Assembly (NCBI GenBank): GCA_026982475.1
Contig: JALSHB010000130.1
Location: 1-62,290, forward strand
Length of the DNA: 62,290 nucleotides
Source of the DNA: Chromatiales bacterium
GTDB lineage: Bacteria > Pseudomonadota > Gammaproteobacteria > SZUA-152
Direction of reading: 5' to 3'
Below the pieces are notes generated by a model, which saw only the letters and a list, made by a program, of their open reading frames with translations, made no database searches and was not told the origin of the DNA. Below are positions 36,519 to 59,446 of this stretch, piece by piece. The translations under genes and the position numbers were made by a program. How positions within the stretch are numbered: the first letter of the stretch is position 1; every line of letters begins with the position of its first letter.

Positions 36519-37160
36519 CTACTTGCTTTCCTGTTGCACCAGGTAGTTGACCACCTGGAACACACGGGCAGTGCCGCCGGCTTCTCCGATACCGGTCCGG
36601 TACTTGCCGTTGACGATGATGGCCGGCACGCCACGGACGCCGTAGCGGTGACCCATATCACGCGCGCGGCGCAGCTTGGTCTCCACGGCGAAGGAGCGGA
36701 ACACCCGCTTGAAGTCCTTCTCGGCCACGCCGTGCTGCTTGAACAGGGCCAGGATCTCGGCCTCGCTGTTCATGCGCCGCTTCTGTTCGTGGATAGCCTC
36801 GAACATAGCCCCGTGGATCTTGTCCACCACGCCAAGGATCTCGGCGGTGTAATAGGCGCGGGCGCCGATCTCCCAACTGGGCTGGAAAATGCCGGGCATG
36901 CGCACGAATTTCACGTTGGCCGGCTTTCTCTTCAGCCAGCGTTCGGTATAGGGCTTGAGACGGTAGCAATGCGGACAGCCGTACCAGAACAGCTCCACCA
37001 CCTCCACCTGACCCGGCGCAGCGCTGGTCGGCTGCGGTGGATCCACGCGCTCATAGTGCACACCCTCCTGATAGGGCGCGGCAAAACCGCTGGAAATGGA
37101 CGCCCCCAACAGGGCCAGGCTGGCGAACAGGATGACGAGTTTATGGGTTGAAAGCTTCAT
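36519..37160 (-). CDS. dsbA: Thiol:disulfide interchange protein DsbA
   Basis: Signal peptide; FWYGCPHC and GVP..VNGKY. Confidence 0.93.
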   Translation of the reverse strand: MKLSTHKLVILFASLALLGASISSGFAAPYQEGVHYERVDPPQPTSAAPGQVEVVELFWYGCPHCYRLKPYTERWLKRKPANVKFVRMPGIFQPSWEIGARAYYTAEILGVVDKIHGAMFEAIHEQKRRMNSEAEILALFKQHGVAEKDFKRVFRSFAVETKLRRARDMGHRYGVRGVPAIIVNGKYRTGIGEAGGTARVFQVVNYLVQQESK

Positions 37161-37417
37161 CGAAAAACCTCTGGGTTTATTCTTGATGGATTCCTGGTTG
37201 ACGATTTCAGGGCGCGCGCCGGGCGTGGCGCTGTTCCGGCGAGCCTATCCAAATCACTACCCGAACGCAAACCCGCAAAAGCACTGATTCTCGTTGCCGG
37301 TTTCATGGTTTATCCTATAGGTCTCACAGGCGCCTCAGCTTAGGTCACCTGTGCGGCGCAAAGGTTCCCGCCCGCGCGCCATCGGCACCGACACCATTCA
37401 CAAGGAGCACGACCCTC

Positions 37418-37903
37418 ATGGTCTCCGAAAAGATCGATCTTGCCCAGTTTCTCAATCAGCAATACCTGTGCGAGTCCCTGACCATCAAAGAAGTCACCAC
37501 CCTCATCGACTACACCGAGCTGGTGATCTTCGACAAGGGCGACGTGATCGCCGACATCGGCGACGTGGGCGAGGCGCTGTACTTCGTTATCAAGGGCGAG
37601 GCGGCGCTGTTCGTCGGCGACCAGACCGAAAGCCAGGTGGGCCTGATCAAGGCCGGCGAACTGATGGGCGAAATGTCCTTCTTCGATCGCAAGCCACGTT
37701 CCGTGCGCGCCCGCGCCATGCAGAACGACACCCAGCTGCTGAAGCTGTCGCGCGCCATGTACAAGCGCCTGCGCGTGGAGCATCCGTACATCACCGTGAA
37801 CCTCCTGGAGCACGCCATCATCAGTCTCGATCACCTGTTCCGCCAGGCCAGCAACGACCTCTCCAGCCTGTCAAACTACTTCAACATGCCGGGGCGAAAA
37901 TAG
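37418..37903 (+). CDS. Stand-alone cyclic nucleotide-binding domain protein
   Basis: GD..YFVIKG and GELMGEMSFFD..PRS phosphate-binding cassette; no HTH domain. Confidence 0.85.
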   Translation: MVSEKIDLAQFLNQQYLCESLTIKEVTTLIDYTELVIFDKGDVIADIGDVGEALYFVIKGEAALFVGDQTESQVGLIKAGELMGEMSFFDRKPRSVRARAMQNDTQLLKLSRAMYKRLRVEHPYITVNLLEHAIISLDHLFRQASNDLSSLSNYFNMPGRK

Positions 37904-37929
37904 CCGCCGGGTCAATAAGCCGGATCAAT

Positions 37930-37963
37930 AAAAGGCCGCCGTGCTCGCACGGCGGCCTTTTTT
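37930..37963. terminator. Bidirectional intrinsic terminator
   Basis: aaaa-ggccgccgtgc-tc-gcacggcggcc-tttttt between convergent genes. Confidence 0.88.
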
Positions 37964-37998
37964 GCTGTGGCCCGGAACTCTCCCGAGCCGCCAGTCCA

Positions 37999-38598
37999 CT
38001 ACTTGTCAAGCCTCGACAGATACTCGGCGACGGCGGCAATGTCCTTGTCGGACATCTTCGCCGCCACGCCCTGCATCATGCCGTTGACATCGTTGCTGCG
38101 CGCCTCGGTGCGATAATCGTGTAACGCCTTGCTGATGTAACCGGCCTTCTGCCCCGCCAGGCGGGGGAAGCCCGCCGGACCATTGCCCACCGCATTGGGG
38201 CCGTGACAACTGGCGCACGATGGCACGCCGGTGTAACGGTTTCCGCCTACATACAGCTTGCGGCCCTTGCTGTTGAGCTCGCCTTCCTCGGCCTTGGCCT
38301 TCTGGCTGCTGAAATAGGCCACGATATCGGCAATGTCCTCATCGCTCAGGCCTTCAACCATGCCGCTCATGGTAGGATCCTGGCGCGCACCGGACTGAAA
38401 ATCGTACATCTGTTTGCTGAGATAACCGGGAATCTGCCCCGCCAGGCTCGGCCATTCGGTATTGAAGCTGTTGCCATCTTCTCCATGGCAGCCCTGGCAC
38501 ATGGCGGACTTTTCCTTGCCGGCGACGGGATCACCGGCAGCGGTAGCATTGGCACTGAAACCCAGCAGCATACAGAGCGCGAGATGCGACCCTTTCAT
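37999..38598 (-). CDS. Diheme cytochrome c4
   Basis: Signal peptide; heme motifs CQGCH and CASCH; PxLAGQ repeats. Confidence 0.92.
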   Translation of the reverse strand: MKGSHLALCMLLGFSANATAAGDPVAGKEKSAMCQGCHGEDGNSFNTEWPSLAGQIPGYLSKQMYDFQSGARQDPTMSGMVEGLSDEDIADIVAYFSSQKAKAEEGELNSKGRKLYVGGNRYTGVPSCASCHGPNAVGNGPAGFPRLAGQKAGYISKALHDYRTEARSNDVNGMMQGVAAKMSDKDIAAVAEYLSRLDK

Positions 38599-38713
38599 AA
38601 CTTTGATCTCCTAAATTAACGTTGATAATGACTGGTTAAAACCGGGGAATGCGTGAATGATGTCGAATCGGCCCAGTGACTGGCAACGTTGTGGCGGCCT
38701 TGCCGCGCCACAA

Positions 38714-39040
38714 TCACCTGAGTCTCATGGGGCCCGATTGATTACTTTCAAAAAACGCCGAAACATCTTCCATGTCCTGATCGGACATGGACGCCGCCAT
38801 GCCGTTCATGATGGGATCCTTGCGGGTGCCGCTGCGGAAGGCCTTGAGCTGTTTCACCATGTATTTGGCATGTTGTCCCGCCAGTATGGGGTAGGCCGGA
38901 TTGGTGCTCACGCCCCCCTTGCCATGGCATACCTGGCATGCGCGGGCCTTGTCCCTGCCGGCCTCCACATCACCGGCAGCCTGGACGGGTGTCGCCGCCA
39001 ACATGGCCAGCAAAAAGAAAACCAGAACCCGCCATTGCAT
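38714..39040 (-). CDS. Monoheme c-type cytochrome (c553/c554-like)
   Basis: Signal peptide; CQVCH, YPILAGQ and a Met ligand region. Confidence 0.9.
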   Translation of the reverse strand: MQWRVLVFFLLAMLAATPVQAAGDVEAGRDKARACQVCHGKGGVSTNPAYPILAGQHAKYMVKQLKAFRSGTRKDPIMNGMAASMSDQDMEDVSAFFESNQSGPMRLR

Positions 39041-39314
39041 TATTACGCTTGCCTTCGTCATTTCTGTTTTTCACGCCTCGTGCAGCTCTGGCCGTCGCCT
39101 CCGCCCCATGCCGGCAAGTCTGCCAGCAAGCTGCGGCAACGAGCCACACAGCCATACGGAGCAGAGCCTGCGGACAATGGCAGAACCATTTCAACCCCCC
39201 CTCTTCGACGACCACCTGAGTTCGACAGACTCTTAGGTTATTGCAGCTTTTGGCAAATTGCCACTCTATAATGGTGATTCCGCGCCGATGCCAACAATAT
39301 CCCCGAGCCCGCTC

Positions 39315-39962
39315 ATGTCACAGACCCGCCCCCGCAAATCCTCTCCCTATCGGCATGCCTGTTTCCTCACCAGCGCCGCTCAGCTCACCCAGCTGCCGCC
39401 CGACGAGGGCTTCGAAGTGGCCTTTGCCGGGCGCTCCAATGCCGGCAAGTCCAGTGCCCTGAACCGCATCACGCAGCAGAAGTCCCTGGCCCGCACCAGC
39501 AAGACGCCAGGCCGCACCCAGCTGATCAACTTTTTCACCCTGGACGACGAACGCCGGCTGGTCGACCTGCCGGGCTATGGCTACGCCAGGGTCGCCGAAG
39601 CCGTCAAGCGGCGCTGGCAGGAAACCATGGAGGACTATCTCGCCAGCCGTCGGTCGCTGCAGGGGCTGGTCCTGCTGATGGACGTGCGCCATCCCCTGCG
39701 TGATACCGACCGGCAGCTGCTCGACTGGTGCTGGCACGTCGGCATGCCGGTGCACGTGCTGCTGACCAAGGCCGACAAGCTCAAGCGTGGCCCGGCCCAG
39801 GCCACCCTGCTGAAGGTGCGCGAGGCGCTGGCCCGCCAGGCGCCGCCCGGCAGCACCAGCGTGCAGCTGTTCTCCGCCCTCAAGGGCAGCGGCATCGATG
39901 AAGTACGCGACAGGCTCGACCACTGGCTGCGGCTGGCGGCCGTCAGTGACGAAGAGGCGTAA
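39315..39962 (+). CDS. engB: GTP-binding protein EngB/YihA
   Basis: Motifs [22 protein letters not shown] and TKADK. Confidence 0.96.
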
Positions 39963-39970
39963 AAAAGGGC

Positions 39971-40100
39971 AAAAAAAACCCCGGTGCCCGTGGTTGGGAG
40001 GAGGCGGGCACCGGGGTCAATACCCGGCATTGGGGGCACCGGGAGTTGAATACCCGCTAGGGAGGAGGAGCGGGGAGGAGCGCTGCTCAGCGCTCACTCA
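39971..40100 (-). ncRNA. Candidate sRNA of about 130 nt with CCUCCUCCC loops, at the polA-engB (Spot 42/ErsA) position
   Basis: Four hairpins, the last a terminator with a U8 tail; upstream sigmaE-like promoter. Confidence 0.65.
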
Positions 40101-40105
40101 CCTAC

Positions 40106-40133
40106 TATGACGGCCGGTATGAATAAAAGTTTC
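40106..40133 (-). promoter_or_regulatory. SigmaE/AlgU-like promoter
   Basis: Minus strand GAAACTT-N16-TCATA, with an AT-rich tract upstream. Confidence 0.6.
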
Positions 40134-40180
40134 GAGGCCTTTTAAAAATTTTTTATAACCAACTGTGGCGGCAGGCCTTT

Positions 40181-42883
40181 TCAGTGTGCCTCGTCCCAGT
40201 TGTCCCCCACCCCGGTATCCACCACCAATGGCACCTTCAGCGCCGCCACGTCGGTCATGCAGCGTTCGATCTCCGTCCGCGCGGCCTCCACCTGGTCCTC
40301 ATGGACCTCGAACACCAGCTCATCGTGCACCTGCATGATCAACGTCACGTCCAGCGCCGTTTCACCGATCCAGCGGTGGGTCTCGATCATCGCCTTCTTG
40401 ATGATGTCCGCCGCGGTGCCCTGCATGGGCGCGTTGATGGCGGTGCGCTCGGCGTACTGGCGGCGCTGGCCGTTGCGGTGGTTGATTTCCGGCAGGTACA
40501 GGCGGCGGCCGAATACGGTCTCGACGTAGCCCTTTTCGCGCGCGCTCTCGCGGGTGCGGTCCATGAAGGCCTTCACCCCGGGGTAGCGCTGGAAGTAGAG
40601 GTCGACGTATTCCTGCGCCGCCTGGCGCGGGATGCCCAGCTGCCGCGCCAGGCCGAAGGCGGACATGCCGTAGATGAGGCCGAAGTTGATGGCCTTGGCG
40701 CTGCGCCGCTGCTCGGCGTCGACCGCCTCCAGCGGCACCCCGAACACCTCGGCGGCGGTGGCGCGATGGATATCCTCACCCTGGGCGAAGGCGCGCAACA
40801 GGCCCTCGTCACCGGACAGGTGGGCCATGATGCGCAGCTCGATCTGCGAATAGTCGGCGGCGAGGATCTTGTGCCGTGGCGGCGCGATGAAGGCCTGGCG
40901 GATGCGCCGCCCCTCGGTGGTGCGCACCGGGATATTTTGCAGATTCGGGTCGGACGACGACAGCCGGCCGGTGCTGGCCACCGCCTGGTGATAGGAGGTA
41001 TGCACGCGGCCGGTGTCGGGGTCGATGCGCCGGGGCAGCTTGTCGGTGTAGGTGGACTTGAGCTTGGAGAGGCTGCGGTAGTCGAGGATCAGGCGCGGCA
41101 GGGGGTAGTCCAGGGCCAGCTCCGCCAGCACCTCCTCGGCGGTGGAGGGCGCGCCCTTGGGGGTCTTCTTCAGCACCGGCAGGCCGAGCTTGTCGAACAG
41201 GATGGCCTGGATCTGCTTGGGCGAGCCGAGGTTGAAGGGCTCGCCGGCCACCTCGAAGGCCTCTTTTTCGATCTCGGCCATGCGCGCCGCCAGCTCCTCG
41301 CTCTGCCGCGCCAGCATCTCGGCGTCTACCAGCACGCCGGTACGCTCCATGTCGGAGAGTACCGGGATCAACGGCATCTCGATGTCGCGGAACAGCGCCG
41401 CCAGCTTCGGCTCGGCTTCCAGCTTCGGCCACAGCACCTGGTGCAGGCGCAGGGTGATGTCGGCGTCCTCGGCGGCGTAGGGGCCGGCGGTGGCGATGGG
41501 CACCTGTTCGAAGCCGATCTGTTTGGCACCCTTGCCGGCCACGTCCTGGTAGCTGGTGGTCTTGCGGTTGAGGTACTTGAGGGCCAGCGAGTCCATGTCG
41601 TGGCGCGAGGCGGTGCTGTCCAGCACATAGGATTCGAGCATGGTGTCGAAGGCCATGCCGCGCAGGGCGATGCCGTGATTGAGCAGTACGTTGCGGTCGT
41701 ACTTGAGGTTCTGCCCCAGCAGCGGCGTGTCGGCGTCCTCCAGCAGCGGGCGCAGCTGCTCCAGCACCCAGTCGCGGTCGAGCTGCTCGCCGCCCGTGGG
41801 ATCGTCGTGGGTCAGCGGCACATAGGCCGCCTCGCCCGCCTCGACGGCGAAGGACACGCCCACCACGCGGGCCTGCATGTAGTCGAGACTGGTGGTCTCG
41901 GTGTCGAAGGCGAACAGTGGGGCGTCGCGCAGGCGTTGCAGCCAGACCGTGAAGGCCTGGCGATCCTGCAGCAGATGGTAGTCGCCGTCAGCGTGGTCGG
42001 CCTCGTCCTGCGGCGTCTCCTCCCCGTCACCGGACAGCAGTTCCGACAGCCAGCTCTTGAATTCCAGTTCGCCCACCAGCTTGATCAGGCGCTCCCTGTC
42101 CGGCTCGCGCACACGCAGGGCCTGCGGGCCCTGCGGCAACGGCACGTCGCACTTGATGGTGGCGAGCTGGCGTGACAAGGGCAGCTGGTCCAGCGAGGCG
42201 CGCAGGTTTTCGCCCACCTTACCCTTGATCTCGTCGGCGTGCTGGATGATCCCGTCCAGGCTGCCGTACTGCTTGAGCCACTTCACCGCCGTCTTCGGCC
42301 CCACCTTGGGCACCCCGGGGATGTTGTCGGAGGTATCGCCCACCAGGGCCAGATAATCGACGATCAGCGACGGCGGGATGCCGAACTTCTCCTCCACCCC
42401 GGCGACGTCGAGGGTGGTGCCGTCCATGGTGTTGACCAGGGTGACGTGCTCGTTGACCAGTTGCGCCATGTCCTTGTCGCCGGTGGAGATCACCGTGTCC
42501 ATGCCCTGCTCGGCCGCCTGCCGCGCCAGGGTGCCGATGACGTCGTCCGCCTCCACGCCGTCGATCACCAGCACCGGCAGGCCCATGGCCTCCACCAACT
42601 GGTGCAACAGCGCGACCTGGCTGCGCAGCTCATCGGGCATGGGCGGGCGGTTGGCCTTGTATTCGGCGTACAGGTCGTCGCGGAAGGTCTTGCCCTTGGC
42701 GTCGAACACCACCGCCATCAGCGCCGGCTGGTAGTCCTTGATCAGCCGCCGCAGCATGTTGGCGACGCCATAGATGGCCCCCGTATGCTGGCCGCGGGAA
42801 TTGCTCAGCGAGGGCAGGGCGTGAAAGGCGCGATACAGATAGGACGAGCCATCGACGAGGATCAGGCGGGGTCTTTTGGTCAT
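40181..42883 (-). CDS. polA: DNA polymerase I
   Basis: Motifs LVDGSSYLYRAFHA, FDTET, ADYSQIELR, AKAINFGLIYG and QVHDEL. Confidence 0.98.
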   Translation of the reverse strand: MTKRPRLILVDGSSYLYRAFHALPSLSNSRGQHTGAIYGVANMLRRLIKDYQPALMAVVFDAKGKTFRDDLYAEYKANRPPMPDELRSQVALLHQLVEAMGLPVLVIDGVEADDVIGTLARQAAEQGMDTVISTGDKDMAQLVNEHVTLVNTMDGTTLDVAGVEEKFGIPPSLIVDYLALVGDTSDNIPGVPKVGPKTAVKWLKQYGSLDGIIQHADEIKGKVGENLRASLDQLPLSRQLATIKCDVPLPQGPQALRVREPDRERLIKLVGELEFKSWLSELLSGDGEETPQDEADHADGDYHLLQDRQAFTVWLQRLRDAPLFAFDTETTSLDYMQARVVGVSFAVEAGEAAYVPLTHDDPTGGEQLDRDWVLEQLRPLLEDADTPLLGQNLKYDRNVLLNHGIALRGMAFDTMLESYVLDSTASRHDMDSLALKYLNRKTTSYQDVAGKGAKQIGFEQVPIATAGPYAAEDADITLRLHQVLWPKLEAEPKLAALFRDIEMPLIPVLSDMERTGVLVDAEMLARQSEELAARMAEIEKEAFEVAGEPFNLGSPKQIQAILFDKLGLPVLKKTPKGAPSTAEEVLAELALDYPLPRLILDYRSLSKLKSTYTDKLPRRIDPDTGRVHTSYHQAVASTGRLSSSDPNLQNIPVRTTEGRRIRQAFIAPPRHKILAADYSQIELRIMAHLSGDEGLLRAFAQGEDIHRATAAEVFGVPLEAVDAEQRRSAKAINFGLIYGMSAFGLARQLGIPRQAAQEYVDLYFQRYPGVKAFMDRTRESAREKGYVETVFGRRLYLPEINHRNGQRRQYAERTAINAPMQGTAADIIKKAMIETHRWIGETALDVTLIMQVHDELVFEVHEDQVEAARTEIERCMTDVAALKVPLVVDTGVGDNWDEAH

Positions 42884-58381: not shown

Positions 58382-58385
<4 letters not shown>
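57633..58385 (-). CDS. GldF-like ABC-2 permease
   Basis: Motifs RELRSLFLSPLAW, PLLTMR..SEE and GKFLG. Confidence 0.88.
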
Positions 58386-59368
<983 letters not shown>

Positions 59369-59446
59369 CCAGTTAGACGGGCCTCGTGACGGTATGGCGT
59401 ATGATATAGTCGATGATGGAAAGTTCAACGACAGAGCGTCCCCTTC

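Follow-up and report, generated by a model that had tools for sequence, protein, structure and literature searches.

A predicted sigmaE-type small RNA of the anti-hemB family between polA and engB in a Chromatiales bacterium

The window analysed here, a stretch of 62,290 nucleotides from a Chromatiales bacterium (contig JALSHB010000130.1 of assembly GCA_026982475.1), carries the DNA polymerase I gene polA on its minus strand and, convergent with it, the GTPase gene engB. Both exceed their NCBIfam cut-offs, which confirms the polA-engB location given in an original prediction made from the sequence alone. Between the two genes lies an RNA-like element that begins 47 nt past the polA stop codon, on the same strand, and stops 8 nt short of the engB stop. 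Read on the minus strand it comprises GAAACTT (40133-40127), a 16-nt spacer, TCATA (40110-40106), four hairpins (40095-40078, 40074-40053, 40043-40023 and 40016-39979) and a run of eight U residues (39978-39971). The features of the locus are as follows:

40181..42883, minus strand: polA, DNA polymerase I, the upstream neighbour (TIGR00593, 987.6 bits, above the NCBIfam cut-off)
40144..40154, minus strand: A/T tract, candidate UP element, a role that its sequence makes likely
40127..40133, minus strand: -35 box GAAACTT, sigmaE-type (family consensus GGAACTT; top matrix site genome-wide)
40106..40111, minus strand: -10 box GTCATA, sigmaE-type, 16 nt past the -35 box (consensus and matrix)
39971..40101, minus strand: predicted small RNA of about 128-131 nt (fold; Rfam model RF02837, 43.7 bits; our model R1, 61.4 bits)
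40078..40095, minus strand: hairpin 1, a short 5' stem (sequence varies, structure kept)
40053..40074, minus strand: hairpin 2, loop CCUCCUCCCU (the most conserved part; CUCCCU core)
40023..40043, minus strand: hairpin 3, CCCCA loop (fold and alignment)
39971..40016, minus strand: hairpin 4 and U8, intrinsic-terminator-like, with a CCCCGG/CCGGGG stem and a C-rich loop (sequence and fold)
39288..39962, plus strand: engB/yihA/ysxC GTPase gene, downstream and convergent (TIGR03598, 241 bits, above the NCBIfam cut-off)

An AAAA(A/T)TTTT-like tract also precedes the -35 box in most family-level relatives. The 5' end of the RNA presumably falls 5-7 nt past the -10 box. A small-protein check found no ORF contained in the RNA; a 134-codon ORF that starts inside it reads antisense into engB and was set aside. 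No terminator was found between the polA stop and the RNA promoter, so hairpin 4 probably also ends the polA mRNA. Divergent from engB lie genes for two c-type cytochromes and a dsbA-like gene (window positions 36519-39061, minus strand); the RNA again has this cytochrome c4-like/dsbA neighbourhood next to it elsewhere, including in genomes with no engB match.

The promoter-like site, the four hairpins and the U8 tract of the original prediction match the sequence exactly, and the minimum-free-energy fold contains all four hairpins (-67.8 kcal/mol, z = -6.32; none of 200 shuffled sequences was as stable). The prediction had also placed CCUCCUCCC in the loops, and here it stands in part: the motif occupies loops 2 and 4 only, loop 3 reading CCCCCA and loop 1 having no C-run. 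The 3.0-Mb genome contains 18 copies of the 9-mer CCTCCTCCC, and a search of the whole genome found CTCCTCCC 8-mers clustered within 150 nt at the polA-engB element only. A generic scanner reported no promoter of sigma70 type and rated the downstream hairpin as weak; the terminator looks weak to this program because its 14-nt loop exceeds the scanner's limit.

Two covariance models were used to follow the RNA elsewhere. R1 was built from 12 sequences of one genus other than the window's, and R2 from 107 R1 matches in 100 loci, with ErsA, sX13 and the unpublished genome G070 left out and with hairpin 1 unpaired. Run genome-wide, both return the polA-engB RNA as the single strong family match in the window's genome. 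The same genome holds a second C-rich hairpin-plus-terminator element (L438, G000:C112:58960-59051, minus strand; R2, 29.5 bits), with CCCUCCCUCCCU upstream and no sigmaE box seen, possibly a separate sRNA.

Relatives were picked by engB and not by the RNA itself, as the best 30 engB loci from 61 genomes. The RNA and its promoter are found in 28 of these 30 loci (26 of 26 from the window's family and two of four from other families), with CUCCCU in all 28 and the CCCCA of hairpin 3 in 26. By contrast, the CCUCCUCCC 9-mer is present in just nine of the 28 (and in 11 of 107 wider family members), with two copies in the window's genome only; the conserved loop motif is CUCCCU rather than the one on which the original prediction had settled. 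The loop of hairpin 4 is variable in sequence among relatives. In a plain MAFFT alignment restricted to one genus, whose 12 sequences are kin and not independent, eight of 29 pairs change on both sides, a count reached in none of 500 shuffles, and 96.8% of cells are paired, as against 37-46% with slid partners. Hairpin 1 has two of its eight pairs changing on both sides in this alignment, with 99% of cells paired, and hairpin 3 has four of nine. The figure rises to 28 of 29 pairs in a 107-row model-fitted alignment, which leans to structure. The comparison of relatives' polA-engB regions, proposed at the outset as a check, thus came out in favour of the RNA. Moreover, polA is unmatched at three loci (L012, L016 and L029), yet promoter and RNA are kept there at engB. 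The presence in 28 of 30 loci, the covariation and the persistence without polA or engB together make it likely that the element is not only a polA terminator: a real, conserved and independently transcribed RNA gene.

An Rfam scan revealed a link that the original prediction had missed. Five Rfam sRNA families match the same 80-130 nt, all below cut-off; they include RF02837, anti-hemB, over its full model length (43.7 bits against a cut-off of 49.5, E 3.1e-8), and a betaproteobacterial toxic sRNA model (19.9 bits against 50). Anti-hemB is also known as the CMfinder hemB/anti-hemB motif and, in Burkholderia cenocepacia J2315, as ncS04, for which the available text of PMC5688073 reports a 105-nt transcript with a transcription start site, 3' RACE, a Northern blot and Hfq binding. 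Judged by its sequence, the window RNA is a divergent homolog of anti-hemB that falls outside the curated membership, and as such a new member of a known, uncharacterised family. In the literature searched (subscription papers, such as the first ErsA paper, lay outside it) we found no published account of a class-wide family. Members without hemB may appear in the supplementary alignments of PMC1950547 and in supplementary figure 5 of the preprint 10.64898/2026.09.01.748597; the parts available of PMC11257525, on SabS of Acinetobacter, and of 10.64898/2026.07.10.737749, on homologs of Spot 42 recognised by synteny, do not describe the family.

This family is widespread. With RF02837, 66 of 131 class genomes give a match (E up to 0.001), seven of them above cut-off, and nearly all of its best 30 loci share the layout, the box and the neighbours. 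R2 matches 76 of the 131 genomes (one per family), a count that includes G070 and many genomes of the training rows, and five of its best matches score below 30 bits, i.e. within background. The best R2 match lies no more than 3 kb from engB in 53 of the 69 genomes with an engB match, and seven genomes without such a match still carry the RNA. In 44 genomes without an R2 match, the region downstream of engB gave a weak R2 match in three and none in 41. A pattern scan of species genomes yielded at least 120 loci, 80 of them titled; the titled loci listed include Burkholderiales, Rhodocyclaceae, Nitrosospira, Steroidobacteraceae, Ectothiorhodospira, Salinisphaera, Competibacteraceae, Wenzhouxiangella and Thermithiobacillus, with Ectothiorhodospira mobilis, Nitrosospira multiformis and Azoarcus among the named records. 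Among these 80, engB lies downstream in 67 (also in most of the betaproteobacterial loci listed), a divergent hemB upstream in 46 and polA upstream in 21, hemB and polA never occurring together; hemB probably replaces polA as the upstream neighbour in betaproteobacterial lineages.

Several variants of the arrangement were seen. Tandem copies, mostly each with its own promoter box, occur at L063, L079, L093, L186, L191 and L192; a Salinisphaera record has three, and an Ectothiorhodospira record also has tandem copies. Comamonadaceae-type copies (L067, L070, L096, L101, L114, L120 and L131) have left engB together with hemB, and their TTGAAA-N17-TAAATT box is sigma70-like, which looks like a switch of promoter. 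Two contigs of a viral collection (L419 and L421) have a betaproteobacterial-type copy with an intact sigmaE-like box and no polA, engB or cytochrome match within 1.5 kb – either a phage-borne copy or host flank; a third (L420) looks like a chance match. A phylum-wide sample gave no convincing family member outside the class. Extension to the Alphaproteobacteria was considered and dropped: the 11 weak out-of-class matches score 27-32 bits and none of the ten inspected lies near polA or engB, so they were put down to background or to C-rich RNAs of no relation. One family outside the class has terminator-ended elements (L432, L433, L434, L439, L440 and L441) with long CCCUCC(C)CUCCCU loops, which are cuckoo-like but not CCUCCUCCC and do not lie at polA.

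The promoter box accompanies the RNA in most members. A loose AAC-N-TC box stands directly upstream of 97 of 107 family members, as against 12 of 106 control windows, and promoter and terminator occur together in 11 of 16 weak-match loci, compared with one of 44 engB-downstream regions of no-match genomes. The family consensus, GGAACTT-N16-TC(T/A)NA, is of the sigmaE type. When a matrix was trained without the window, the window's box ranked first of the 29 sites above 15 bits in its genome. Other such sites precede genes for ClpS, for a sigma factor like RpoH, for a PPIase like FkpA and for a protease like HtpX, as named from their Pfam domains and from sigmaE regulons; many others precede genes with no evident link. 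The genome has rpoE above cut-off, with a similar box upstream, and an hfq gene. The third-ranking sigmaE-like box of the genome (20.6 bits) also lies in the window, at 59400-59427 on the minus strand, before an ABC transporter ATPase gene (58382-59368). The consensus and the genes behind similar boxes suggest that the RNA is transcribed from this promoter and depends on sigmaE. The original prediction's combination of an ErsA- or Spot 42-like position with a sigmaE-type box and exposed anti-Shine-Dalgarno-like loops is, at the level of sequence, supported. Nevertheless, sigma70-like boxes stand instead at seven of the 80 titled loci listed (all without engB) and at L031 and L437, and ncS04 showed no change by qPCR in any of seven conditions (PMC5688073, Table 2, from the part available); sigmaE control is therefore not universal.

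As to function, RpoE is likely to switch on a trans-acting RNA of about 130 nt from the sigmaE-type promoter during envelope stress. Hfq may bind this RNA through its U tail, by analogy with ncS04, the only family member for which binding is in print. The CUCCCU loop (complement AGGGAG) and the CCCCA loop would then form kissing-type pairs with G-rich leaders or ribosome-binding sites, hairpin 2 with its CUCCCU core being the likely main anti-Shine-Dalgarno seed, and this pairing would lower translation of the target mRNA, as has been published for the loops of sX13 and the seed of ErsA; the targets may be of envelope type. Taken as a whole, it seems to us quite probable that the window encodes a conserved four-hairpin RNA of the anti-hemB family with a sigmaE-type promoter, predicted to be induced by RpoE and to act, assisted by Hfq, as an anti-Shine-Dalgarno repressor. 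A target scan of the single genome (2479 self-called genes, duplex energies and seed counts) returned GC-driven noise, with no coherent set and no clear envelope enrichment among the predicted targets; its outer-membrane-protein filter caught one gene only, and the seed GGGAG precedes six of 64 predicted lipoprotein genes against 125 of 2371, which is only marginally commoner. The MlaA family has no match in the genome, and neither the algC-like phosphomutase leaders nor the hfq leader has a site complementary to the CUCCCU of loop 2. One metatranscriptome (share 0.05), with no reads over 39888-40109 and polA and engB pieces from other organisms only, was uninformative.

Whether two named sRNAs from the same genomic site, Pseudomonas ErsA and xanthomonad sX13, belong to the family is a separate matter; from the sequences we incline to the view that they are homologous to it. 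R2, which was built without them, matches 22 of the 22 ErsA loci tested (20-36 bits), as against three of the 44 engB-downstream controls, and gives sX13 27.8 bits. Reciprocally, all three RF01719 (ErsA) matches in the 131 genomes fall on family members at polA-engB, as do six of the nine sub-threshold matches of RF02232 (sX13) on family members in the same set. ErsA further shares with the family its sigmaE box, site, similar length and GCUCC placement: among 120 ErsA-motif metagenome loci, from which the 22 were drawn, the box is present in 106 of 111, polA in 77 and engB in 77, and 40 of 41 distinct sequences have GCUCC 29-30 nt past the -10 box, the hairpin-2 arm of the family having a median of 28 nt (interquartile range 25-31; 34 in the window). 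For its part, sX13 has the same four-hairpin order and a GAACC...GTGTTAT box conserved in both sX13 genomes examined.

The strongest competing explanation, to which we give distinctly less credence, keeps the window RNA as a true member of the anti-hemB family and holds ErsA and sX13 to be unrelated, having arisen separately at the same spot and sharing no more than a GC-rich terminator with a C-rich loop. Their R2 scores do overlap the off-locus background (23.7 bits in E. coli, 29.5 in the window's genome and 34.1 in an sX13 genome), and C-rich RNAs of the alphaproteobacterial sample away from polA and engB reach 27-32 bits too. ErsA is the top genome-wide R2 match in just two of the four matched genomes of its family, true sX13 ranks second in both genomes examined, the genome-wide R1 run missed sX13 altogether and ErsA is without hairpin 2; moreover, sX13 has no sequence likeness to Spot 42 or ar7 (PMC3771888, in the text available). 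It is the reciprocal matches, the excess over the engB-downstream controls and the shared box, placement and hairpin order that tell against separate origins. Both sX13-bearing genomes also contain, away from polA, a further conserved RNA-like element (L325 and L427), with two hairpins, CCCUCCC loops and a terminator, which outscores sX13 under R2. An order-level search for Pseudomonas around genome G074 returned G074 alone.

Beyond this homology, we are evenly divided about a still wider reading, in which this is the sigmaE small RNA that the broadly defined Gammaproteobacteria (Thermithiobacillus to Burkholderiales) had ancestrally, forming one unrecognised superfamily at the engB 3' end in more than half of the sampled families, with anti-hemB, sX13 and ErsA as its branches and its slot taken by Spot 42 in E. 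coli. If that is true, anti-hemB, sX13 and ErsA, described as unrelated, would be joined as one, and the envelope-stress response would have a repressive RNA arm in many lineages where none is known. A single such RNA would be ordinary; the interest lies in a class-wide, sigmaE-type family that probably joins three Rfam families. Bacterial trans-acting sRNAs usually have a narrow range, and it is rare for a family to persist, promoter type included, throughout most of a class. The family answers the question, raised in the available text of the sX13 paper (PMC3771888), whether the polA locus of other bacteria encodes sRNAs; it supplies the anti-hemB motif, so far without a function, with a regulator (RpoE) and a mechanism (anti-Shine-Dalgarno loops) that can be tested, in place of the proposed hemB control, and lets the ErsA and sX13 results extend to lineages for which no sRNA regulation is known, sulfur oxidisers and nitrifiers among them.

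Two further possibilities concern what the RNA does and whether it is a gene at all. It could act in cis on a neighbour (as a hemB antisense or 5' control, or a 3' control of engB) or bind a protein, rather than pair with mRNAs. In favour stand a proposal of antisense control of hemB (preprint 10.64898/2026.09.01.748597), the strong linkage to the engB 3' end (53 of 69) and the very stable stems beneath all of the loops, which restrict pairing. However, hemB is on another contig here and none of the 60 loci L001-L060 has it; at loci that do, its start lies 111-233 nt upstream, in divergent orientation and with no overlap; and the RNA ends before the engB stop and survives without engB. We thus consider a cis role or protein binding unlikely. 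Much less probable again is that the element is only the polA 3' UTR and terminator, or a piece of that UTR, and lacks its own promoter. Its closeness to polA, on the same strand with no terminator in between, is what one would then expect, but promoter box and RNA stay joined at loci that lack polA or have divergent hemB in its place, are duplicated as units in Salinisphaera and Ectothiorhodospira, and are lost together (a box in one of 44 regions lacking the RNA); the stems covary around conserved loops in hairpins 2 and 3, and the Burkholderia member has its own transcription start site (PMC5688073, available text).

Finally, the cuckoo link of the original prediction found no support, and it is scarcely credible that the element is a cuckoo (CcsR/ar14) RNA in a gammaproteobacterium or functionally copies such an RNA: despite the two loops with CCUCCUCCC and a score of 30.2 bits (E 0.004) under the ar14 model, the cut-off of that model is 58.8 and its alignment to the window RNA has many broken pairs, the 9-mer is scarce among relatives, and cuckoo RNAs carry CCUCCUCCC in every loop and were confined to Alphaproteobacteria among 2,680 genomes (PMC4615179, available part).

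Set beside the known systems, the window RNA resembles the cuckoo RNAs (CcsR; ar14, RF02344) in its loop-displayed anti-Shine-Dalgarno motif and in having 2-4 adjacent hairpins; it differs in that the motif is not in every loop and the host belongs to the wide-sense Gammaproteobacteria, a class that takes in the anti-hemB and sX13 genomes, and it may still act as they do, via anti-Shine-Dalgarno loops. With E. coli Spot 42 (spf, RF00021) it has in common the position and strand between polA and yihA/engB. RF00021 has no match in the region (E up to 10) or in the window's genome, R1 and R2 give none to the E. coli spf locus, and Spot 42 is found in none of the 131 sampled class genomes. Spot 42 is under CRP/sigma70 control. 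The resemblance to anti-hemB is closer: hairpin 2 is near-identical to the first RF02837 hairpin (CCCGCU-[CUCCCU loop]-AGCGGG), the CCCCGG/CCGGGG-U terminator and the three 3' hairpins recur, and R1, although made from one genus, recovers above-cut-off anti-hemB loci at 28-60 bits. Unlike anti-hemB, the window RNA has polA and not hemB as its upstream neighbour (hemB is on contig C153), engB being the common one, as well as an extra 5' hairpin that the Rfam model does not cover and CCCCA as the loop of hairpin 3; its sigmaE-type box goes unmentioned for anti-hemB in the text available, and some Burkholderiales copies have a sigma70-like one.

Xanthomonadaceae sX13 (RF02232; 23.7 bits for the window RNA, E 0.12, cut-off 50) likewise lies downstream of polA and has four hairpins in the same order, C-rich loops and a GCCCCG terminator. 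The available text of PMC3771888 describes three stable stems with C-rich loops, through which sX13 represses, and action without Hfq. At sX13 loci, engB has moved away and the -10 box departs from the sigmaE consensus. Pseudomonas ErsA (RF01719, Pseudomon-1; 32.9 bits, cut-off 50) is alike, as read from sequence only, in site, strand, sigmaE/AlgU-type box and length of about 130 nt, and also in hairpin 1, hairpin 3, the UUG(A/G)ACCCC terminator with a C-rich loop and GCUCC at the hairpin 2 position. Where the window RNA has the closed hairpin 2, however, ErsA has between SL1 and SL2 a long U/G-rich single strand for target pairing, without a CUCCCU loop. ErsA is sigma22-dependent and represses mlaA, in an Hfq-dependent manner, via pairing of a CCU with the ribosome-binding site (PMC5819304; PMC13613067, section 16; parts available); its pairing region covers nt 28-50 for mlaA, where the CCU was mutated, and for oprD lies just behind SL1 (PMC13613067, same section). 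The mutated CCU would correspond to the GCUCC at the hairpin 2 position. The family is probably the common stock of sX13 and of ErsA, the latter with hairpin 2 opened into a single-stranded seed.
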